The translations under genes and the position numbers were made by a program. Below are positions 1 through 12,301 of a stretch of DNA of 14,708 bases, in pieces. Source of the DNA: Candidatus Terraquivivens tikiterensis (lineage in GTDB: Archaea > Thermoproteota > Nitrososphaeria_A > Caldarchaeales > Wolframiiraptoraceae); NCBI GenBank assembly GCA_003056285.1, contig NDWU01000028.1, positions 1 through 14,708 on the forward strand, given 5' to 3'. The notes under the pieces were generated by a model. The model was not told where the DNA came from. It saw only the letters and a program-made list of their open reading frames with translations, and searched no databases. How positions within the stretch are numbered: the first letter of the stretch is position 1; each line of letters opens with the position of its first letter.

Positions 1-215
1 GGTAAAGCTCCTTGTGGTTAGACAAGTCACCAATACTCCTCGACATTCCCATCAACCTTTGCCTCCAACCCTGCGACCCCTCCCCTGGGTCAGCGTGTTC
101 TCCATCTACGCTCGCGGCGTCCAGCAAAGGTCGAGACGCTTTTACCTAAAATTCTTTAACGTCAGGCGTGCGGCATCCTATTTGCCGTAGAACATGTGTC
201 GTGAAGTCGTAAACG

Positions 216-1583
216 CTAGCCCTGCACCGTAGGCCCTTCGCCGGGTTTACTTCCTACACCATCCTCGGCTTTTTTAACAGTTAGGGTTCCGTCCTCCATC
301 AGCCTCACGATGACCCTGCTCCCCTCGCTCAACCCCATCTTCTCGGCAACCTCCGCAGGTATGCTTATCCTCCTGCCAGAGAGGACCTTCTGTAACCTGT
401 CGACGACTGGCATGACATCGGTTTTCTGCTCAGTCTCCTTTTCCTTCCCTTCCTCGCAGAGCTGCTCCTTAGAGTCGGTCTTAGTAAGTTTTCTATCAGA
501 TGCCCTCTTGAAGATCTTGGAGAGCTTTGTGACCGCGAATCCCGCAATACCTGCGGCTTGTGCTATCGCGATCCAAACAACCAATGTCCTCTCCCAGCTT
601 GCAACTGCGTACTGCTGGCTCAGGCTCTTGTATTCCTCTTCGCTTTCCTTCAACGACCTCTGTAGGCTTCCTATCTTCTCTAGGGCGTCATCATACCTTG
701 CCCGAAGGTCTTTGTATTCCTTCTTCAGCTCGTCGTATAGCGTCGTTAGTATCGTGTACTCCTTGGTGAGCGAGCTGTAGTCTGAGCTGAGGTTTTCGTA
801 TTCATGCCTTAGGCTCTCCTCGGACTTTAGCAACGAGTCGTACCTATCGCGAAGCGTGGCGTATTGTGTAGAGAGGTTGAGATAGCTATGACGGATGGAT
901 GAAAGCTCCGCATCCAGCTTTGATATATTATCCTTCAGCTGTACGTTGAGAGCCTCGGCTGATGCGAGCCTGTACTTTAGCAACCCGTTTTCAACCTCCA
1001 AGGCATTAACCAGCTCGTTCAGCTTCGAGACTTCATCCCTAAGCCTGCTCGCTTCCAACCTTAGCGCGCTAACGGCACTCCTTAGGCTTGAAACCTCGGA
1101 CTGGAGCGCGCTTATCGTAGACTTTGCGGCGTCAAGCTCTGCCGTCAGTTCTGAATAGTACTTATCCCTGACGGTCGCCATGTAAAACTCCTGTAGCAGG
1201 CCTCCGCTTGCATAGGTGGCGTTAATCCTTGCGGATACGAGCGTGCCGAGCGTCGACGGCGGACAGAGCGTCAGCACACCGCTATACGCCAAGCCAGGCC
1301 CACCGCTGAAAGATGTTACGACGTAGGCGTCGTAGAGCGTCGCGGTAGACGAGGCCGTATGGTAGATGACTTTTAGGTGCACGTTGAGGTTCGATACGGT
1401 TTTCAGGACGGTCACGTCAACCCTTACGCTGAAGCAAGTGCTTGGCTTCACTTCCGTCGGGTAGCCCAGGTCTATCTTGACGGAACCATCGTTTATGCTC
1501 ATGGCGAAGGCCTCTGCGTTGGCGCTGGGTATGAAGAGAGCTAACGCGATGAACAGCAGAAGAATATAACGATGCCCCCTCAA
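216..1583 (-). CDS. Membrane-anchored coiled-coil protein: signal peptide, beta-rich ectodomain, ~190-aa heptad coiled coil, one TM helix, C-terminal cytoplasmic SpoVT/AbrB-like domain
   Basis: 455-aa ORF with a TTG start at 1583; there is no in-frame ATG until after the hydrophobic leader. The N-terminus MRGHRYILLLFIALALFIPSANA/EA has a basic n-region, a hydrophobic core and an A-x-A type end. Residues ~141-328 show unbroken heptad periodicity. Residues 333-353 (TLVVWIAIAQAAGIAGFAVTK) form a hydrophobic helix followed by a K/R-rich stretch. Residues ~393-436 (RLQKVLSGRRISIPAEVAEKMGLSEGSRVIVRLMEDGTLTV) fit the SpoVT/AbrB swapped-hairpin pattern. An AT-rich TATA-like box lies at 1621-1635 on the minus strand. 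Confidence 0.8.
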   Translation of the reverse strand: MRGHRYILLLFIALALFIPSANAEAFAMSINDGSVKIDLGYPTEVKPSTCFSVRVDVTVLKTVSNLNVHLKVIYHTASSTATLYDAYVVTSFSGGPGLAYSGVLTLCPPSTLGTLVSARINATYASGGLLQEFYMATVRDKYYSELTAELDAAKSTISALQSEVSSLRSAVSALRLEASRLRDEVSKLNELVNALEVENGLLKYRLASAEALNVQLKDNISKLDAELSSIRHSYLNLSTQYATLRDRYDSLLKSEESLRHEYENLSSDYSSLTKEYTILTTLYDELKKEYKDLRARYDDALEKIGSLQRSLKESEEEYKSLSQQYAVASWERTLVVWIAIAQAAGIAGFAVTKLSKIFKRASDRKLTKTDSKEQLCEEGKEKETEQKTDVMPVVDRLQKVLSGRRISIPAEVAEKMGLSEGSRVIVRLMEDGTLTVKKAEDGVGSKPGEGPTVQG

Positions 1584-1650
1584 GCCTGAAGCCCCTGTTG
1601 CTTTTTTGCCCGTAGCGCATATTAATTTTACTATACAGGGCGCTACGCCG

Positions 1651-3117
1651 TCACATACCTATCCAAGATTTTACGGCGCTTACTATTATGCTGAGGATCG
1701 GCGCGTTAGCAAACCCAAATAGGATGACCAGAAGCAGTAGGACACCCATCGGGAATACCATGCTGGCGGGCGCCTCCTTTGCCCCCTCGTGCCTAGATTC
1801 CAGGAAGAATACTGCCCTTACCATCCTGAGATAGTAGGCCGCCGTGATGGCTGTCGCGAGTATGGCAACGGACGCCAATAACGCCTTACCGGACGCGAAG
1901 GCTCCAGAGAATATCATCCACTCGCTCGCGAAGCCTCCAAGCGGAGGGGTCCCAGCTATCGACAGGCCTGCTACGAGCATCGTCATGGCAGTGACTGGCA
2001 TCCTTGGGGCTAGGCCTCCGAGCCTCGACAGATCCCTCTCCTTGACGCTGTGTATCAGGGCGCCTGCACCCATGAAGAGCAATCCCTTGGCAAAGCCGTG
2101 GTTAAGGACGTGGAAGAGGCCGCCGGATACGCCCATAGGTGCGAGCGACGAGAGGCCGAAGAGTATGTAGCCCATCTGGCTGATGCTGCTGTAAGCCAAA
2201 AGCCTCTTAACGTCGTTCTGAACGAGCGCCATGATGCCTCCCCAAAGCATCGTCACGACGGCGAGCGGCATAAGCCAAGCAGACATCTCCGAGACGGCCG
2301 CCGGCATGAGGCCGAGGAGTAGCCTTGCGAAGGCGTAGACCCCGGTCTTTATCATAACGCCGCTCAAGAGGACGCTTATGGGCGTTGGCGCCTCCGCATG
2401 GGCGTCTGGAAGCCACGTGTGGAACGGGAATACTGCCATCTTAACTGCCGCCCCCACGAACACCAGCGCAGCTATGCCCAGCAGGGACGTCCTGTGGATT
2501 TCGTAGGCACGGGGAACGCTCCCTAAGAGTAACGACATATCCATGCTGCCGAATATGGAATTCAGCCAAGCTATGCCGAGGAGCATGCAGAGGGCGCCAG
2601 CATGCGTGAAGAGGAAGTACTTGAAGCCTATGAGCCTAGGGTTACCCGTTCCCCAGTACGCTATGAGGAAGTAGGATGGGATGAGCATGATCTCCCAGAA
2701 TATGTATAGCATGAATAGGTTCCAGGATAGGACGACGCCCATCATGCCCGTTTGGAATATCTGGAGCAGCGGGTAGTAAACCTCTAACCTGCTCTCGTGC
2801 TCCATGTACCTATGAGAGTAAACGCTAGCTAAGAAGCCCATGAGCGATATGAGCAGCGCGAAAGGGTAGCTTAAGCTGTCGAGCATGAAGCTCAGGTTAA
2901 GGCCGAACGCTGGTATCCAGCCGTATGCCTCGTAGAGCCGCTTACCGTCCATTATAGCCGTTGCGTGGTAAAGGATTATCAGGAAAGGTATTAAACAGGA
3001 GGCATGGGACAAGGCTGCCCCGTACTTCCATGAGCGCCTACCTAACAAGTAGGTGAAGGGCGAGGCGATTAATGGAAGAAAAACGCTAAAGATGAGGGCG
3101 TAACCCATTCCCGTCAT
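1651..3117 (-). CDS. nuoM: Proton-conducting membrane transporter, NuoM / MrpD-like antiporter subunit (complex I subunit M/N family)
   Basis: 488-aa polytopic membrane ORF. It carries family hallmarks: WEIMLIPSYFLI, HTWLPDAHAEAPTPISVLLSGVMIKTGVYAFARL and KRLLAYSSISQMGY. Its ATG overlaps the upstream gene's TGA by 4 nt (ATGA at 3114-3117), which indicates translational coupling. Confidence 0.88.
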   Translation of the reverse strand: MTGMGYALIFSVFLPLIASPFTYLLGRRSWKYGAALSHASCLIPFLIILYHATAIMDGKRLYEAYGWIPAFGLNLSFMLDSLSYPFALLISLMGFLASVYSHRYMEHESRLEVYYPLLQIFQTGMMGVVLSWNLFMLYIFWEIMLIPSYFLIAYWGTGNPRLIGFKYFLFTHAGALCMLLGIAWLNSIFGSMDMSLLLGSVPRAYEIHRTSLLGIAALVFVGAAVKMAVFPFHTWLPDAHAEAPTPISVLLSGVMIKTGVYAFARLLLGLMPAAVSEMSAWLMPLAVVTMLWGGIMALVQNDVKRLLAYSSISQMGYILFGLSSLAPMGVSGGLFHVLNHGFAKGLLFMGAGALIHSVKERDLSRLGGLAPRMPVTAMTMLVAGLSIAGTPPLGGFASEWMIFSGAFASGKALLASVAILATAITAAYYLRMVRAVFFLESRHEGAKEAPASMVFPMGVLLLLVILFGFANAPILSIIVSAVKSWIGM

Positions 3118-5030
3118 GCACGAATGCCCCCGAAAAGCATGATCAAGAATATCGCTAAGAGTATCGCGATTCCCAGCGCGTACCCGCTGACGTTGACGTT
3201 GCTGCTACCTGTCTGCAGGTACCTGAAGGCTTGGACGAAGGACTGCGTAGCCCTAGCAAGCGCGTAGTTAAAGCCATCTATGACCTTCTCCTCAACGTAC
3301 TTCCTGACCTTCGAAGAAAGCCAGAGCGTTCCATCCACAAAAACCCTGTAGTATGCGTGGTCTATGTAGTACCTGTTCACCAGCAACTTGTGAAGCGCAG
3401 AACCCAAACCGTTTTTCCTCATAGCCGATGGGTCGATTAGGGGGGTGCCCCTAGATACTGCTGAGAGGTAGAAGGCGTAGGCAAGCGATAGGCCGGATGC
3501 CAGTATGACGGCCGAGGTTGCGTACGCTGCGGGGCTAGGACCAAAGTGGTTATGAAGGCCGACGTACCCTGCGAACTGTTCCTCGAAGAGGCCGACAAGT
3601 AGGCTGAGTCCTGCGAGGGCTATCAGAGGCACCGTCATGACCTTTGGGGCCTCGCGTGCGTGGGAGGAGCTTGGGCCTGGGGGCGATAGGAAGATCTTAT
3701 AAACCCACCTCATGATGTAGGCGACGGTCAGAATCGATGTAAGAACGACGAGAAGGTAGACTACCGTATTGCCGGCCTCGAGCGATGCCTCTATTATTAG
3801 GTCCTTGCTGAAGAAGCCGCTGAAGGGCGGTACACCAGAGAGCGCGAGCGCGCCAAAAAGGGAGGCGGTGAACGTGAGCGGCATCCTCCTTGCCAGCCCA
3901 CCCATCTCGTCGATGTCGTTCGTATGGACAGCGTGGATTACCGCTCCAGCCGAGAGGAATAGCAGGGCCTTGAATACGCTGTGGCTTAGGACGTGGAACT
4001 GGCTGGAGAACCATCCGAGCTCAGATGACAGGCCGAGGGCGGCGAACATCAGCCCAAGCTGGCTTATAGTAGAGTATGCAACCACCCTCTTTATGTCGTT
4101 CATCACGAGGCCCATCGTCGCTGCCATGAAAGCCGTTACCGCCCCTATCGTCGCTACCGTCTCGTACCAAGGAGCCAGGATTCTGCCGAAGGCTTCTATA
4201 GGGGCGATCGTGAGAGCCGTCCTGGCAACCAGGTATACGCCGGCTTTTACCATCGTAGCCGCGTGGATGAGGGCGCTGACCGGTGTCGGCCCCTCCATGG
4301 CATCCGGTAGCCAGACGTGTAGGGGGAACTGGGCCGATTTCCCCATGGCACCCCCAAAGATGAGCAGCATGCACGCAAGAACGAAACCTTGGGCACCGGG
4401 GTCCTTTGAGACAAGCTCCTCCAGACCGGCAGAGAGCCCGCGTACGCTAAACGTACCGATGGATCTGTAAAGTAAGAGTATGCCTATTAAGAACGCCGCA
4501 TCGCCAACCCTGGTCGTAATGAACGCCTTTATTCCAGCATGCGCGGCTGACGGCTTCCTATACCAGAAACCAATCAGGGCGTAAGAGCACACCCCTACTA
4601 TCTCCCAGAATACGTAAGTTTGTAGCAGGTTATCGGAAAGTACGAGGCCTACCATAGCACCTACGAAGAAGAGCATGAAGAAGTAATACCTAGGAAGCCC
4701 TTCCTCGTGCTCCATGTAGCCTAAGGAGTATAGGATGATGAGCGTGCCGAGGAAGGATGCGATCGAGGCGAACAACACGGATAAAGGGTCCACGAGGACG
4801 CCTGCCTCAACCCAGCTGCCGTCGGGCATGGGCATCCACTTTATCCTCTCTTCTATAGCCCTCCCTCCCCATACGTCGAAGACCATGGAGAGGGAGAAGA
4901 CGGCAGAGGCTGAGGCCACGGCTACTGGATAAATCTCGCCCGCCCTTTTGCTCAGCCTGAAAAACGCGGGGACGAAAACGGAGCCGACGATGGGTATCAG
5001 CCAAGAAAGCCATGCTGCGGACGGCAACAT
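3114..5030 (-). CDS. nuoL: Proton-conducting membrane transporter, NuoL / MrpA-like antiporter subunit with C-terminal lateral-helix extension
   Basis: 638-aa polytopic membrane ORF. It has WEIVGVCSYALIGFWY, HVWLPDAMEGPTPVSALIHAATMVKAGVYLVART and KRVVAYSTISQLGLMF. The C-terminal extension (IDGFNYALARATQSFVQAFRYLQTG plus a final TM) is typical of the NuoL/MrpA long amphipathic helix. Confidence 0.88.
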   Translation of the reverse strand: MLPSAAWLSWLIPIVGSVFVPAFFRLSKRAGEIYPVAVASASAVFSLSMVFDVWGGRAIEERIKWMPMPDGSWVEAGVLVDPLSVLFASIASFLGTLIILYSLGYMEHEEGLPRYYFFMLFFVGAMVGLVLSDNLLQTYVFWEIVGVCSYALIGFWYRKPSAAHAGIKAFITTRVGDAAFLIGILLLYRSIGTFSVRGLSAGLEELVSKDPGAQGFVLACMLLIFGGAMGKSAQFPLHVWLPDAMEGPTPVSALIHAATMVKAGVYLVARTALTIAPIEAFGRILAPWYETVATIGAVTAFMAATMGLVMNDIKRVVAYSTISQLGLMFAALGLSSELGWFSSQFHVLSHSVFKALLFLSAGAVIHAVHTNDIDEMGGLARRMPLTFTASLFGALALSGVPPFSGFFSKDLIIEASLEAGNTVVYLLVVLTSILTVAYIMRWVYKIFLSPPGPSSSHAREAPKVMTVPLIALAGLSLLVGLFEEQFAGYVGLHNHFGPSPAAYATSAVILASGLSLAYAFYLSAVSRGTPLIDPSAMRKNGLGSALHKLLVNRYYIDHAYYRVFVDGTLWLSSKVRKYVEEKVIDGFNYALARATQSFVQAFRYLQTGSSNVNVSGYALGIAILLAIFLIMLFGGIRA

Positions 5031-7602: not shown

Positions 7603-7677
7603 TGCATGCCTGGCGCTCGTGTACAAGAATACGTTGTAGAAACAGAGGCCCTGCATCTACCTAATCCAGTTTTCAAC

Positions 7678-7685
7678 GTTAAATC
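7678..7685 (+). promoter_or_regulatory. TATA-like box for the HTH/coiled-coil and KaiC-like operon
   Basis: GTTAAATC is centred ~26 nt upstream of ATG 7708. This supports the internal ATG (MSEEEISL...) as a leaderless start rather than the ATG at 7606. Confidence 0.4.
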
Positions 7686-7707
7686 CAAGCACGATCAACG
7701 ATATAGT

Positions 7708-8271
7708 ATGTCCGAAGAAGAGATAAGCCTGGCACCTGTCGGGCGGCAACAGATTCACAGGCTGGAGTCGGCGCTGCTGCTGGGCACGCTATTCAGGCCA
7801 GAGGTACTCGAGGCTCTAAGAAACCCTGAGGAAAGGCTGACGTGGGTCGATTCGCTGGCTGTAGCAGCGGCCGCGATAGCAAGGGAACGTGCTAAGATGA
7901 CGGTGAGCCAGATAGCCGAGGAGCTCGGAAGGGCTGAGCAGACGATCCGTAATCACATCCAGGGGAAGACGAAGGCCGGGCATTTCGTAAAAGAGACGTT
8001 GCAGCGCTTCATGAAAGAGGGCGTCAAGATACAGCTTCCTGCATCGATTTTCTCAGAGGCATCCGCCCAGACATTAGCTGAGGTCCCGGCCGATGCGGAG
8101 CGGCTAAAACAGGAAAGCGAGAGGTTGAGGCAAGAGGTGGAGAGCCTCAGGTCGCTGCTGGAAGAGGAGCAGAGGGCTAGGCGTAAAGTCGAGGAGGAGT
8201 TGGCTGGCTTAAAGGAAGTTATAACAAACGTCAGACGAATGCTTGAGGCCGCACTGAATCAGTTGCCATAG
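7708..8271 (+). CDS. HTH DNA-binding protein with C-terminal coiled coil
   Basis: The HTH-like segment MTVSQIAEELGRAEQTIRNHIQG lies at nt 7897-7965. A charged heptad segment ERLKQESERLRQEVESLRSLLEEEQRARRKVEEELAGLKEV lies at nt ~8092-8250. The ORF is open from 7606, but the first 34 codons (7606-7707) look non-coding and overlap the predicted promoter. Confidence 0.75.
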   Translation: MSEEEISLAPVGRQQIHRLESALLLGTLFRPEVLEALRNPEERLTWVDSLAVAAAAIARERAKMTVSQIAEELGRAEQTIRNHIQGKTKAGHFVKETLQRFMKEGVKIQLPASIFSEASAQTLAEVPADAERLKQESERLRQEVESLRSLLEEEQRARRKVEEELAGLKEVITNVRRMLEAALNQLP

Positions 8272-8286: not shown

Positions 8287-9030
8287 ATGCCAGTCGAGCG
8301 CGTGCAAACCGGCATACCTGGGTTCGACGAGGTGCTGCATGGAGGAATACCACGAAGGAACGTAGTGCTGATCTCCGGCGGCCCGGGAACGGGTAAGTCT
8401 ATTCTGGGCCAGCAGTTCTTGTACGAGGGGCTAAAGCTAGGAGAGCCCGGAGTCCTCGTCGTGCTCGAGGAGCACCCTGTCCAGATACGGGTAGACATGG
8501 CCCAGTTCGGCTGGAAAGTAAAGGAATATGAGGAGAAGGGCTTGTTCGCCATAGTCGATGCTTTCACGGCCGGCATAGGGGAGGCTGCGAAGAAAGAGCG
8601 CTACGTCGTGAGAGCTCCGGACGACTTTAACTCTTTGGCTGACACCATGAGGCAGGCGATAAAAGACCTCCAGGCCCAGCGTGTCGTCGTCGATTCTGTC
8701 ACGACGCTCTACATAACCAAACCATTCCTGGCACGCTCGACAGTCCTCCAGCTCAAGAAGATCCTATCAGGATTGGGATGTACCTCGCTCCTCATCTCCC
8801 AAGTTAGCGTAACGGAGCGGGGCTTCGGCGGTCCTGGCGTCGAGCATGCCGTCGACGGCATAGTCCGCTTAGATTTGGACGAGGTTGACGGAGAGCTGAA
8901 AAGAAGCATACTAGTTTGGAAGATGCGCGGTACGAGTCACTCGATGCGCAGGCATCCCTTCGATATAACGGATAAGGGAATAGTAGTCTACGCAGATAAG
9001 TCTATCGCACCGTCGAGGATGGGTGAATAG
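8287..9030 (+). CDS. Single-domain KaiC-like / RecA-superfamily ATPase
   Basis: The N-terminus has the [31 protein letters not shown] Walker A block (nt 8377-8400). Walker B is RVVVDSV. LLISQV and the KMRGTSHS...[14 protein letters not shown]-terminal block are typical of the KaiC/RadA-paralog family. An SD-like GGTGGTGA (8275-8282) lies 4 nt upstream of the ATG, and the gene starts 15 nt after the upstream stop, so the two are probably co-transcribed. Confidence 0.9.
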
Positions 9031-9208
9031 CGTGGCCTTTGGGCGCCTTGTTCGTACAAGTCCTTAAACGCCATGCCGGAGAATCTTGGAAACCTGTTAA
9101 TCGTTGACCCGTGCCCTTCTCATACGGTTACCGTCTTAGAGCCAGCGAGGCGTATCGTGGGACCTGACAGCATGCATCTTCGGATCCATCAGATGCGGAG
9201 GTGATGGG

Positions 9209-9526
9209 TTAGGCAAGCCTCCTAGCGGCAACCCTCGCTAAGTCCATTACGAGGCAGGATGAAATGGGCCGGGCACCAGCCTTCTTCCTGTGAAGCTTGA
9301 TCCTTCCGCCCGTGAGCTGGCCGAGGAAGAAAGCTACTACGAACAGAGGTATGAGGACTGGGTCAACCCCGCTCATGAACCTCAGCGCGAATATCAAAGG
9401 CACGGGCAAGTGGATGGCCATTATCCACTGCTTCGAGAACCTCTTCGTATCCGCTCTCCAATAACCGAACGGCACATTCAGTAAATAGACGAACGCTAGG
9501 AGGGATGCCAGGAGTGAGGCTGACAA
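9209..9526 (-). CDS. Small hypothetical membrane protein (about 3 TM helices)
   Basis: 105-aa ORF with a TTG start. Hydrophobic helices are SLLASLLAFVYLL, WIMAIHLPVPLIFALRF and LIPLFVVAFFLGQL, with basic loops between them. I did not recognise a family, and the start codon is uncertain. Confidence 0.55.
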   Translation of the reverse strand: MSASLLASLLAFVYLLNVPFGYWRADTKRFSKQWIMAIHLPVPLIFALRFMSGVDPVLIPLFVVAFFLGQLTGGRIKLHRKKAGARPISSCLVMDLARVAARRLA

Positions 9527-10084
9527 ATCGCGTCCGTTAAATGTTTTGGTACTGTCTGGGATTTATGTTTTACACAGAGCATCCCTTTTCTTCTTAGTAG
9601 ATGCTCGACGGAGAAGGGCGTCGTGGGTACATCGCGGATCTTTGCCCGCCGTAGGAAACAATAACATAAACAGGCATAGGATCTTGAGCGATTTGTCGTA
9701 AAAGCGCGGACAGAATGATGATGCTGTTAAGCTTGAGATGTGGGGGACTTTCCCCATACGTATGACCCCAAGCTCGAAAGGGCATGGAAGAAGACGTACG
9801 GGGCGGGTTCGACCCGAAGGGCGATGCCGGCCTCCCATGAGCCAAGAGGAGGACAAGGTCTACGTAGAGGCCAGAACCCTAACCTTACCCTATTATTTTA
9901 TTAAAGCTCTTTGGGGATGACTGCTCACGGCATCCGAAGGCTAAGACCGCAGGATACCTCAAAACGTTAAACAAAATCCCTTGCGCCATCCGTGAGCCTT
10001 CGCATAACCAACAATAAACGGAGAATTTTTAGCCAATTGCTCAAGAAATTATCACAAGAACTTCATAAAATCGAGCGTTTAAAG

Positions 10085-10094
10085 TTTATATATT
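10085..10094 (+). promoter_or_regulatory. TATA box for the ArsR-family gene
   Basis: TTTATATATT is centred ~27 nt upstream of ATG 10117, consistent with a leaderless transcript. Confidence 0.45.
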
Positions 10095-10116
10095 AATTTT
10101 TTATTGTAAAAATGTA

Positions 10117-10431
10117 ATGTCAAGTTTATTTACTGAAGAGCAGCTGGAGCGCGTCTCAAAGCTCTTCGGTGCATTGGGCAACAAGACTAGGCTCAGGATG
10201 CTCTTGATGGTGGCCGAAAGCAAGAGGCCGCTCCACATAAAGGCGATCGCAAAGGGCCTAAGGATGGACTATGCTGCCGTCTATAGGCACGTGAAGGTGC
10301 TCGAGGGAGCCGGCATAGTCGAGGTATACGAGGTCGGTAGGTCTAGGGTCCTTTCGCTCAAGAACCAAGGCTGGCTAATCGAGCTACTCTCAAAAACGAT
10401 TGAAACAATTCGGGTAAATGAGCTCGTATAA
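10117..10431 (+). CDS. ArsR/SmtB-family winged-HTH transcriptional regulator
   Basis: LFGALGNKTRLRMLLMVAESKRPLHIKAIAKGLRMDYAAVYRHVKVLEGAGIVEVYEVGR matches the ArsR HTH_20 pattern (xxLadptRlriLxxL...sxxxvsxHLkxLxxaGlv). The protein contains no cysteine at all, so it lacks the ELCVCDL-type Cys metal site and is not an obvious thiolate metal sensor. Confidence 0.85.
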   Translation: MSSLFTEEQLERVSKLFGALGNKTRLRMLLMVAESKRPLHIKAIAKGLRMDYAAVYRHVKVLEGAGIVEVYEVGRSRVLSLKNQGWLIELLSKTIETIRVNELV

Positions 10432-10525
10432 TTTAAAATATAATTTGCCAAAATTGTCATATTAATTTAACAGAAAGATTTTTATAACTAAACGAATAAG
10501 ATAAAACAAGTTACGAGGGGTCGTC

Positions 10526-11107
10526 TTGAACTCTAGGTGTTGGGCCTTCGCGGCGATGATGGGAGCCTTAGGAAACGCTTTGGCGGCTTTAACGGTCATT
10601 CCGACGATGGTCCAGCAGGTTGCGCTCGACTTTTCCCTCCTTCCCGCTATCATTGCCGGCATATACGGAGGCTGGGCCTTGGGTGGCCTGACCGGCTTCA
10701 TAGCAGGGATCCTTCCCTCTATATGGTTCGGGCCTCTTGGAAGCCTTGGGCCCTTGGGCATAACCGCCTGCATAGGAAAGGCCATTATGGGCATCACGGT
10801 CGGCCTGCTCTCAAGAGCCTTCAAGAGGTGGCTTGACAAGAGGACTTGGCTTTATGTACCATTGGTGGCTGTAGCCTTCCTGCCAGAGGCTGTTTGGATA
10901 TACATAGTCTTTGCTGTCATGGTACCGCTCTTCCTGCCGGCTGCGCCTGCCTTTCTGCCAGGCTTATGGGCACCGATACTCCTGAAGGGCTCTTTCGAGG
11001 TAGCCGTGATGGGGTTCTTTACTGCAGCCCTCGCAGGCCACAACGGCTTCAAGAGCCAGATCCTCTCATTCCTAACACCTCAAACGCTACCCGTTAAGAA
11101 AACCTGA
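10526..11107 (+). CDS. Polytopic membrane protein, ECF-transporter S-component-like
   Basis: 193-aa ORF with 5-6 hydrophobic helices. The segment VALDFSLLPAIIAGIYGGWALGGLTG resembles the S-component signature (xDLsxhPhhhxxhhxGxxxG). TTTATAA at 10481-10487 and GAGGGG at 10515-10520 precede the TTG start at 10526. An ATG at 10556 is an alternative start but would truncate TM1. Confidence 0.65.
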   Translation: MNSRCWAFAAMMGALGNALAALTVIPTMVQQVALDFSLLPAIIAGIYGGWALGGLTGFIAGILPSIWFGPLGSLGPLGITACIGKAIMGITVGLLSRAFKRWLDKRTWLYVPLVAVAFLPEAVWIYIVFAVMVPLFLPAAPAFLPGLWAPILLKGSFEVAVMGFFTAALAGHNGFKSQILSFLTPQTLPVKKT

Positions 11108-11181
11108 AAAACACATTTTTACCCAAAAATAGGTAGAAACTAAAGTTTAAGTAAATCTTTAGTATACCATACTCCGGCGGC

Positions 11182-11877
11182 ATGGAGCACGAAAAGCCTT
11201 CGAGGAGCCTAATGGTCGCCGTCGCGGCCATGTTCGGAGGACTTTCCTCTGCCGTTACCATGCTGAGGCTCAGCTTTCCGTTTCCGCCCCTGCCTTACCT
11301 TAAGTTTGACCTAGCGGAGCTACCGGTCATCTTTTCTTTCTTGGCTTTTGGGCCAACACTGGGCCTTTTTACGTCGCTCGTGTACTGGGCGGCGTTAACC
11401 CTCATGACGGTCGGTGAGTGGCTTTGGCCTATAGGTCCCTTCATGAAGTTCTTGGCGGTAGTCTCGATGCTTGCAGGGATCTGGGCGGGTTCAAGAGGGC
11501 TCGTGAACTCTAAGAGATACGGCATCGGCCTGCTCATGCTCCGCATGGGTCTGCTTTCAGCATCGGTCAGGGCGGCCATCATGGGTGTGATGAATTACGT
11601 AATATTGGTCATAGTGGCGCCGGAGTCCCTTGCCTTCGTTAATTCATTGCTTTCGGCGACGCTGGGCTTGAGGCTAGGCTCCGAGGCCGAGCTGATCACC
11701 CTCGTCATAGCGCTTACGGCGGCCTATAACGTAGCCCACGCAGCCTTATCCTTGGTGCCCCCGGCCGTAGCCGTCCAAAGTGTTGAAAGGATAGGTGCCT
11801 TCTATAGGATGGCTGGTGGCTCTTGGATGGGAAACCTCGTGGAAAGGCGGGCAGTAGCTCATAAATACATGGATTGA
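11182..11877 (+). CDS. Polytopic membrane protein, ECF-transporter S-component-like
   Basis: 231-aa ORF with ~6 TM helices. LKFDLAELPVIFSFLAFGPTLGLFTSLVY closely resembles the conserved loop1/TM2 motif of ECF S components (RibU/ECF_trnsprt type). A TATA-like TTTAAGTAAA at 11146-11155 lies ~27-31 nt upstream of the ATG. Confidence 0.7.
   Translation: MEHEKPSRSLMVAVAAMFGGLSSAVTMLRLSFPFPPLPYLKFDLAELPVIFSFLAFGPTLGLFTSLVYWAALTLMTVGEWLWPIGPFMKFLAVVSMLAGIWAGSRGLVNSKRYGIGLLMLRMGLLSASVRAAIMGVMNYVILVIVAPESLAFVNSLLSATLGLRLGSEAELITLVIALTAAYNVAHAALSLVPPAVAVQSVERIGAFYRMAGGSWMGNLVERRAVAHKYMD
11861..11869 (+). promoter_or_regulatory. Possible internal TATA box for nikR inside the 3' end of the upstream gene
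   Basis: ATAAATACA is centred ~29 nt upstream of ATG 11894. nikR could therefore be leaderless with its own promoter as well as read through from the upstream gene. Confidence 0.3.
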
Positions 11878-11893
11878 TTCTTAATTTTTAGAT

Positions 11894-12301
11894 ATGGTTA
11901 GAAGGGGCGTAGCCAGGGTTAGCATATCCATACCGCCCGACTTGCTGAAAGAGCTTGACAGCATGCTCGAGAAGGTAGGCTACGATAGGTCGAGGGCCGT
12001 GCAGATAGCGATAAGGAACTTCCTAACGGAATACAGATGGGTCCACGAGCAAGGCGAGGTTGCGGGTGCCCTCCTGCTACTATACGACCATAAGAGGAGG
12101 GGCGTGGAGGAATCTTTGACCGACATCCAGCACGAGCACGGAAGCGTCATCACGTCTACGATGCACATACATCTAGACGAGGACAACTGCTTGGAGATAG
12201 TTGCTGTGAGGGGGAGCTCGAGGAGCATAAAGGAGCTCGCAGAAAAGATGATGAGAGAAAAGGGCGTAAAGCAGCTCAAGCTGGCCATCCTCGCATCGTA
12301 G
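11894..12301 (+). CDS. nikR: Nickel-responsive regulator NikR (ribbon-helix-helix plus C-terminal metal-binding domain)
   Basis: The N-terminal RHH segment is RVSISIPPDLLKELDSMLEKVGYDRSRAVQIAIRNFL. The C-terminal block QHEHGSVITSTMHIHLDEDNCLEIVAVRG parallels the NikR high-affinity Ni-site region (His/His/Cys pattern HxH...HxHxxxxxCLE). Confidence 0.9.
   Translation: MVRRGVARVSISIPPDLLKELDSMLEKVGYDRSRAVQIAIRNFLTEYRWVHEQGEVAGALLLLYDHKRRGVEESLTDIQHEHGSVITSTMHIHLDEDNCLEIVAVRGSSRSIKELAEKMMREKGVKQLKLAILAS

Follow-up and report, generated by a model that had tools for sequence, protein, structure and literature searches.

SlaB is the surface-layer (S-layer) stalk and anchor in Sulfolobales, where it stands perpendicular to the membrane in the pseudo-periplasmic space; it consists of three immunoglobulin (Ig)-like domains, a 132-aa trimeric coiled coil and a transmembrane (TM) segment at positions 448–470 of its 475 residues, and its ectodomain contains 14 sequons (PDB 8QOX; PMC10903991). 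The reported distance between membrane and S-layer is ~30 nm for Sulfolobus, while in Pyrobaculum the lattice lies 37 nm above the membrane. According to a 2026 preprint, homologues of the Pyrobaculum S-layer protein, which is self-anchored, are present in Caldarchaeales, a Terraquivivens species among them. Transmembrane transcription regulators, such as ToxR, CadC, TcpP and the archaeal ArnR, combine a membrane segment and a DNA-binding domain in one chain, and are operationally defined by at least one predicted TM segment together with a DNA-binding domain that is likewise predicted. In the survey that defines them, single-pass proteins are their commonest class and they are widespread in archaea; an AbrB-type domain is mentioned neither in its main text nor in the supplementary material consulted (PMC10269533). 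The AbrB fold itself is found in Sso7c4, which has been described among the small chromatin proteins of Sulfolobus; it is an obligate homodimer whose loop residues bind DNA in the major groove (PMC3159460). Here we describe a gene whose product joins three parts in one chain: on the outside a rod that resembles SlaB and has a fixed length, then a TM helix that is conserved, and on the inside a leashed AbrB domain of the chromatin type. It is locus B9J98_07855 of 'Candidatus Terraquivivens tikiterensis', deposited in GenBank as a hypothetical protein (100% match to P0001), and it lies on a contig of a metagenome-assembled genome (MAG) whose entire 14,708 bp are referred to as the window. With moderate confidence, we read its product as an envelope stalk with an autonomous function outside the cell. 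At the inner membrane face, it would display a predicted DNA-binding AbrB dimer and so serve either as a regulator that resides in the membrane or to tie DNA to the envelope.

The gene occupies 216..1583 on the minus strand, to which the coordinates of its features below refer, and according to the list of open reading frames (ORFs) and its translation it comprises 455 codons, from a TTG start at 1583–1581 to a stop at 216–218. The plus-strand reading of the same interval was rejected, as its translation is full of stops, while the minus-strand translation reproduces every feature quoted in an earlier interpretation made from the sequence alone (hereafter, the sequence-only reading): a signal peptide, a beta domain, ~190 residues of heptads, a TM helix and an AbrB domain, in this order. 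The same fused order, namely signal peptide, head, coiled coil, TM helix, basic cluster, low-complexity linker and an AbrB domain with vQ[KR]vLSGRR[IV]T[IV]P, recurs in 11 of the 13 other full-length clusters defined at 50% identity, which share 25–33% identity with the query, so that ectodomain and AbrB domain do co-occur in homologues. The AbrB tail is missing from two distant clusters, P0018 and P0025. Across 14 divergent members, the AbrB domain is the most conserved region (mean pairwise identity 0.45) and the TM helix the second (0.42), followed by the head (0.32), the coiled coil (0.29–0.33), and the linker and the C-terminal tail (0.18 each). All the named members come from hot-spring Nitrososphaerota/Caldarchaeales MAGs (Caldarchaeum, Calditenuaceae, Geocrenenecus and Terraquivivens) and all from uncultured or enrichment-only organisms; judging from these comparisons, the architecture is conserved and specific to the Caldarchaeales lineage. 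Database annotations call the members either hypothetical or an 'AbrB/MazE/SpoVT family DNA-binding domain-containing protein', and some labels of the Joint Genome Institute (JGI) name a PrlF-type antitoxin. Literature searches for a membrane-anchored AbrB protein retrieved no published description and no characterised member, in agreement with the sequence-only reading, which had not recognised the architecture as a described family.

The family was delimited with a hidden Markov model (HMM) of the head domain only, searched against 1.84 billion representative proteins. Of the 22 matches that this search gave at E ≤ 1e-3, 16 belong to the family, and 14 of these 16 have E < 1e-10. Giant repeat proteins that were also matched are false positives, produced by many weak repeats whose scores add up; the skate mucin-16 P0017, which has SEA repeats, was rejected as a member, as were DUF11 and Big_3 proteins from unrelated organisms. 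With the profile of the full family, a word-indexed search turned up an overwhelming number of coiled-coil candidates and contributed just two further members. Matches of the target in Pfam, NCBIfam and PADLOC to SMC, Rad50, JetC, LmuB, TACC and others are compositional and all far below the cut-offs. At the DNA level, a degenerate pattern for the motif QKVLSGRRxTIP detected nine loci, with the fused gene recurring in species-representative genomes.

That two separate genes were joined by a chimeric assembly or by a frameshift could be suspected from the position of the target gene 215 bp from the end of a MAG contig and from the existence of shorter homologues. However, the fused ORF of P0002 is found in at least four independent assemblies, and over ten divergent clusters, which come from different samples and sources, also have a fused ORF. 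The short homologues are secondary truncations or deletions of the fused form, and the only apparent free AbrB copy, the 86-aa P0069, is a contig-edge fragment whose frame continues into the coiled coil and TM helix; in no homologue was the AbrB part found as a separate adjacent gene. Cross-assembly comparison excludes an assembly artefact, the probability of which we regard as vanishingly small, and the reservation of the sequence-only reading that the fusion might be artificial can be dropped.

The calls for signal peptide, TM helix and topology were made from hydropathy and standard sequence rules. The predicted signal peptide spans residues 1–23 (1515..1583), with the core ILLLFIALALFIP, a hydropathy peak of 1.98 and the cleavage motif ANA↓EA, and a small-x-small cleavage site is present in every family member. 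The TTG start is kept in all the close homologues. In one of them, P0006 (L012, 6001–7023), the database call begins at an internal Met and leaves out the signal peptide; its true ORF begins at the conserved upstream TTG, with the signal peptide (LSKFWYFFVLLLTLAIFIPSIHA) intact. The signal peptide is followed by an Ig-like beta-sandwich head at residues 24–140 (1164..1514), which carries a YPxEV motif and is modelled by AlphaFold with eight strands at a predicted local distance difference test score (pLDDT) of 95.4. The two Cys residues and the N-A-T sequon assigned to this domain in the sequence-only reading are both there: C50 and C107 show no variation among the 14 aligned members that bear AbrB and probably form a disulfide, and the NAT sequon is present. 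Foldseek searches with the head domain returned only generic arrestin, ML-domain and E-set sandwiches, with TM-scores of ~0.5, and in these matches no recognisable ligand-binding module was found for the ectodomain.

From the head, a coiled-coil stalk extends over residues 141–332 (588..1163), with ~27 heptads in one unbroken register of 192 residues. A register scan found 5–8, mostly 6–8, of the 8 core positions per 28-residue window to be hydrophobic over this whole segment, and AlphaFold models a single helix over residues 143–347. If fully helical, the stalk would measure ~28 nm, and the comparison that the sequence-only reading had drawn with the depth of a crenarchaeal pseudo-periplasm fits the distances reported for Sulfolobus and Pyrobaculum. 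The organism itself is an aigarchaeote of the order Caldarchaeales and not a strict crenarchaeote. A tabulation of a and d positions in 14 sequences shows Leu at 76% of the d positions, and I/V/L at the a positions over residues 143–200. Residues 213–300 (684..947) then form ~13 consecutive heptads with Tyr, His or Phe at a and Leu at d. Tyr accounts for 40% of all the a positions, exchanges between Tyr and His are frequent, and the aromatic pattern is kept across the family. Such a Tyr/His–Leu aromatic zipper is an unusual coiled-coil design which merits structural study. The ectodomain length is held to 298–319 aa in the family, and indels in the coiled coil nearly all comprise whole heptads (7 or 14 residues); both features would fit a molecular ruler.

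The stalk leads into a TM helix at residues 334–352 (LVVWIAIAQAAGIAGFAVT; 528..584), with a hydropathy of 1.98, an invariant Gln342 and the motif AQAAGxxG. The invariant Gln and the small-residue motif suggest that this helix may pack in a specific manner rather than serve as a passive anchor. The basic, positive-inside flank pointed out in the sequence-only reading was recovered, with six K/R in the 15 residues after the helix versus two in the 15 before it, and the bias holds in 14 of the 17 members (4–7 after versus 1–3 before) where the hydropathy scan detected the helix. Together with the conserved cleavage site and the invariant Cys pair of the ectodomain, this distribution points to a type I topology, with the N-terminus outside and the C-terminus inside. 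Sequon enrichment in the ectodomain was also tried as a topology test and none was seen, the density being equal to that of the cytoplasmic part. The predicted cytoplasmic part begins with the K/R cluster (KLSKIFKRASDRKLTK) and a low-complexity, flexible linker, which together cover residues 353–394 (402..527; pLDDT 27–36). A third Cys, C378, which has to be added to the account of the sequence-only reading, is located in this linker. No segment of the family is less conserved or more variable in length than this linker, which measures ~20–90 aa. Being both variable and disordered, it can tether a domain but cannot relay a conformational change.

The linker carries an AbrB/MazE/SpoVT swapped-hairpin domain at residues 395–440 (264..401), with the signature vQ[KR]vLSGRR[IV][ST]IP...LGL.EGD, after which the protein ends in an acidic, Gly/Pro-rich C-terminal tail (residues 441–455; 219..263; pLDDT ~30). 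The motif on which the AbrB assignment of the sequence-only reading was based, GRRISIPAEVAEKMGLSEGSRVIVRLMEDGTLTV, is found at residues 403–436, and profile searches bear the assignment out: PF04014 scores 39.4 bits against a cut-off of 24.7 (E = 5.9e-10) and TIGR01439 scores 39.2 bits against a cut-off of 28.3. When compared with the PDB, a family profile of this part matches Sso7c4, AbrB-N, MazE and SpoVT at E values from 1e-4 to 2e-3. S402, G403, R404, R405, P409 and G421 are invariant, and a K/R is kept just ahead of LG[LI]; nucleic-acid binding would fit the SGRR loop, which is basic and invariant, and the net positive charge. Among solved structures of the AbrB family, the closest is Sso7c4 (PDB 2L66 and 5ITJ), with the same fold family and size, and its loop residues R11/N12/Q14 correspond in a manual alignment to S-G-R-R of the target, which by analogy may bind DNA as well. 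The fold has the order beta1-beta2-alpha-beta3-beta4 in ~45 residues; of these elements, the AlphaFold model of the monomer contains the helix (410–415) and the last two strands (424–428 and 434–438), at a pLDDT of ~70, but not the first hairpin, as would be expected of a fold that needs two intertwined chains to exist.

Closest to the AbrB domain of the target are free-standing Nitrososphaeria AbrB proteins of 52–61 aa that share the QKVLSGRRI[ST]IP...EGD signature at 50–65% identity. From these similarities, the family looks like a small, putatively DNA-binding AbrB protein that was captured onto the cytoplasmic end of a type I stalk protein: Sso7c4 and the free Nitrososphaeria proteins are soluble, whereas the domain of the target would be tethered to the membrane by the disordered linker. 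Free-standing AbrB proteins of 52–66 aa with QKVLSGRRI[ST][IL]P also occur in mesophilic ammonia-oxidising Nitrososphaeria (P0070–P0077), and a Nitrososphaeraceae MAG (L014) and a Nitrosocosmicus MAG (L017) both encode such a protein. The QKVLSGRR-type AbrB proteins are a Nitrososphaerota-specific, uncharacterised subfamily.

The AbrB domain is dispensable in some lineages. Five close relatives, at 65–71% identity, end soon after the TM helix, and the 3' ends of four of these five AbrB-less genes were aligned at the DNA level. L003 and L012 carry a CAG>TAG nonsense mutation at the codon equivalent to Q in KKPEQAAK, and L011 has a poly-A frameshift plus the same TAG. AbrB-sized deletions are also seen, and that of L001/P0005 is in frame, with the C-terminal tail retained. 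No AbrB gene is located downstream in any of the four aligned relatives. With a poorly resolved neighbour-joining tree, in which only the P0004 and P0007 grouping stands out (94.5%), the claim is limited to at least two different types of lesion. Over the head, stalk and TM helix, the pairwise ratios of nonsynonymous to synonymous substitution rates (dN/dS) range from 0.10 to 0.17. L003 and L011, which share the stop codon, give a dN/dS of 0.146 at a dS of 0.65, and because the stop codon is shared at this dS, most of their divergence probably post-dates the loss of AbrB. It follows that the extracytoplasmic part serves a function independent of AbrB, since the domain was lost while the stalk is under purifying selection. 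These natural AbrB-minus variants are built-in controls for what the tail does.

The losses and the linker bear directly on a ToxR/CadC-like one-component sensor, in which the head would sense a cue, and dimerisation or clustering of the stalk would switch DNA binding of the AbrB domain and control specific genes. The target, with TM helix 334–352 and its PF04014 match, falls within the operational definition of a transmembrane transcription regulator, a class widespread in archaea, and the unusual conservation of the TM helix with its invariant Gln is what would be expected if TM packing matters. His often replaces Tyr at the core a positions, so that the stability of the stalk could, speculatively, be pH-sensitive. 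The layout, nevertheless, is the opposite of that of ToxR-type regulators, which are N-in proteins that lack a signal peptide and carry a winged-helix domain at the N-terminus, whereas the target would be a type I protein with a signal peptide and a putative DNA-binding swapped hairpin at the C-terminus. In place of a ligand-binding domain, its ectodomain has a sandwich of generic type on a rigid rod whose length is conserved, and the linker is of a kind that cannot relay conformational changes. Furthermore, the output domain, in contrast to that of transmembrane transcription regulators, is dispensable in several lineages in which the supposed sensor is intact and selected, which is unexpected for a dedicated sensor, and no target genes or conserved neighbouring regulon were found at the loci examined. 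A sensor of this type appears unlikely. The sequence-only reading had proposed a one-component trans-envelope signalling device or a membrane-sequestered regulator. Its architecture and its sequence-derived topology have stood, but a dedicated signalling device, as it was put, is unlikely given the disordered, variable linker and the AbrB losses under continued selection on the stalk.

In the reading that we favour, that of a stalk which works outside on its own and displays AbrB inside, the signal peptide would be cleaved and the Ig-like head would sit atop a parallel coiled coil, a rigid rod whose length would suffice to bridge most of the gap from membrane to S-layer. The outside part would probably have a structural or spacing role, or contact the underside of the S-layer. 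Inside, the disordered leash of 20–90 residues would carry an Sso7c4/AbrB-type half-barrel; oligomerisation through the coiled coil and the TM helix may bring two tails together, to form a swapped-hairpin dimer at the inner face of the membrane, and this dimer would then bind DNA there. Any regulation would occur via clustering, abundance or release of the tail, and not via conformational relay.

Release of the tail is at the centre of another explanation, a membrane-sequestered regulator in which the AbrB domain would be kept inactive at the membrane until an envelope signal led to cleavage in the linker or the TM helix; once freed, it would act as a soluble DNA binder like Sso7c4. Long, exposed and of low complexity, the linker would make a plausible protease substrate, and the tail is nearly identical in type to the free-standing AbrB proteins of 52–61 aa and could function once released. 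In some relatives, a gene for a CPBP/Rce1-like intramembrane protease is found ~7 kb away, but it is no direct neighbour, and other clades do not conserve it. Moreover, the linker contains no conserved cleavage motif, and a released monomer would lose the dimerisation enforced by the stalk, although AbrB domains dimerise alone. Taken together, we consider regulated proteolysis very unlikely.

Several points weigh against a stalk that holds a DNA-binding dimer at the membrane. The N-out/C-in topology would follow from sequence rules, and the 0–4 sequons per ~305-aa ectodomain across the family differ from what is seen in heavily glycosylated S-layer stalks. The aromatic Tyr/His core could point to a trimer or some higher oligomer rather than to the dimer that the sequence-only reading assumed, and AbrB half-barrels of the same stalk would then lack a partner. 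Recurrent loss of AbrB could also mean that the tail is marginal rather than central. With regard to DNA binding, the prediction would follow from family membership only, and AbrB-fold domains also act as protein-binding modules; by E value, the best PDB match of the tail (3.5e-5) is the double-psi barrel of the CDC48 N-domain. In a manual alignment with the sequence of B. subtilis AbrB, the helix positions equivalent to R23/R24 are Ala/Glu in the target.

These last points lead to the possibility that the tail is a protein–protein module, either antitoxin-like or an adaptor that would recruit a cytoplasmic partner to the stalk, for instance a nuclease, an ATPase or part of the cytoskeleton. 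The fold is common to MazE/VapB antitoxins and the CDC48 N-domain, and the target shares PF04014 with the MazE/VapB/PrlF type II antitoxins, in line with the PrlF labels of some JGI entries. Unlike these antitoxins, the target is predicted to be anchored in the membrane, and no VapC, MazF or YhaV gene stands beside any member examined. Antitoxins bind their toxin via a conserved C-terminal extension, whereas the tail after the AbrB domain is here short and unconserved, and the invariant basic loop and positive charge described above would fit nucleic acid as the partner. The chances of such a module seem slim.

As for the outside part, the likeness to SlaB lies in the layout, since both proteins have a signal peptide, an Ig-like sandwich head, a long coiled coil and a single TM segment near the C-terminus, and the target, too, would stand perpendicular to the membrane in the pseudo-periplasmic space. 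Homology was considered and rejected: the SlaB profile NF040788 scores 34.1 bits against a cut-off of 700 and is confined to coiled-coil segments, and a match to 8qox_B (E = 0.01) lies mostly over the coiled coil and reflects coiled-coil bias. SlaB is absent from the top 50 Foldseek matches for the head domain and also from the top matches for the full model. The target has one Ig domain versus three, a coiled coil of ~190 aa versus 132, and 0–4 sequons versus 14; SlaB ends ~5 residues past the TM segment, whereas the target continues for ~100 cytoplasmic residues with the AbrB domain. The slaA and slaB genes are encoded as an adjacent pair, and no slaA-like gene is adjacent to the target. From these comparisons, the target is best described as an analogue of SlaB and not as a homologue.

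A bolder form of the proposal would couple the S-layer to DNA, with the head in contact with the underside of the S-layer, the stalk spanning 30–37 nm and the AbrB dimer holding DNA, chromosomal or other, at the membrane. With a head of ~4 nm, an estimate for a beta-sandwich, the 28-nm rod would nearly span a 37-nm space. No S-layer partner was identified, and no large surface-protein gene is conserved alongside at the loci examined. We regard a coupler of this kind as decidedly unlikely. If true, it would be an archaeal link between envelope and nucleoid, comparable to tethers of the Noc/RacA type and, loosely, to the eukaryotic LINC complexes, which could position or segregate DNA or report envelope integrity to the genome. 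Membrane-resident DNA-binding proteins are already known, mostly as N-in helix-turn-helix sensors. Should the tail bind DNA at the membrane, in whatever role, it would provide a direct link between envelope and genome in the Caldarchaeales, a poorly understood archaeal order. In L011, an 874-aa surface protein with CLIPPER/DUF11/CARDB repeats is encoded at 8744–11368, ~1.6 kb downstream of the AbrB-less stalk gene, and it is not seen in the other contexts.

The genomic neighbourhood differs between clades. In the closest clade, the target gene follows two genes for Mrp/Nuo L/M-like antiporter subunits; in the window, these are adjacent Proton_antipo_M/N genes at 1651–5030 on the minus strand, directly upstream of the target, which encode Mrp/NuoL/M-like proteins of 488 and 638 aa, and no other complex I or Mrp subunits are found in the window. 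A TATA-box-like element, TAAAATTAATAT, lies at 1619..1630 (minus strand), 35 nt upstream of the start codon, and is conserved in six of six close homologues while its flanks diverge. Because this element sits just past the stop of the upstream antiporter-like gene, it suggests that the target has its own, putative promoter. An operon link to the antiporter-like genes was rejected as a family feature on two grounds, the restriction of the pairing to the closest clade and the TATA-like box. A scan of the window for bacterial promoters and terminators was set aside as uninformative for an archaeon. Distant members have a different, mutually conserved housekeeping neighbourhood, with Trm56, TFIIE-alpha, an ATP-binding cassette transporter and SucD on one side and Metallophos and thiolase genes on the other, and dehydrogenases are also among the neighbours of family loci. 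Beside the loci examined, there was no toxin gene (VapC/PIN, MazF or YhaV) and no fixed partner, and no genuine match to a defence system was obtained. The target reads as a vertically inherited core chromosomal gene, and not as a toxin–antitoxin module or a mobile element.

Between the target gene and the contig end, window 1–215 (minus strand) contains a stretch homologous to a 50-aa coiled-coil ORF that is conserved just downstream in close relatives (L007, 9439–9591; L001, 9318–9470, reading MSVDKELADLRERVARLEAKVDEMSKRLDALSNYAKELYQYIQKLSRPLV). The copy in the window has no ATG, shifts frame midway and runs off the contig end, and it is either decayed or affected by poor sequence at this end. 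Scans of the window for tRNA genes and Rfam families gave no matches. Further along the window, on the plus strand, a gene for a 221-aa protein that has no Pfam match and a charged, coiled-coil-looking C-terminus (7606–8271) is directly followed by one for a single-domain KaiC-like ATPase (8287–9030; PF06745, E = 7e-87), and the two may form an operon pair. The GC content drops to ~0.46 around 9500–10500. At 10117–12301, also on the plus strand, an ArsR-type helix-turn-helix regulator, two multi-pass membrane proteins (10526–11107 and 11182–11877) and then a NikR-like regulator (NikR_C, E = 8.5e-31) are encoded in a cluster that looks like a locus for metal uptake or regulation.

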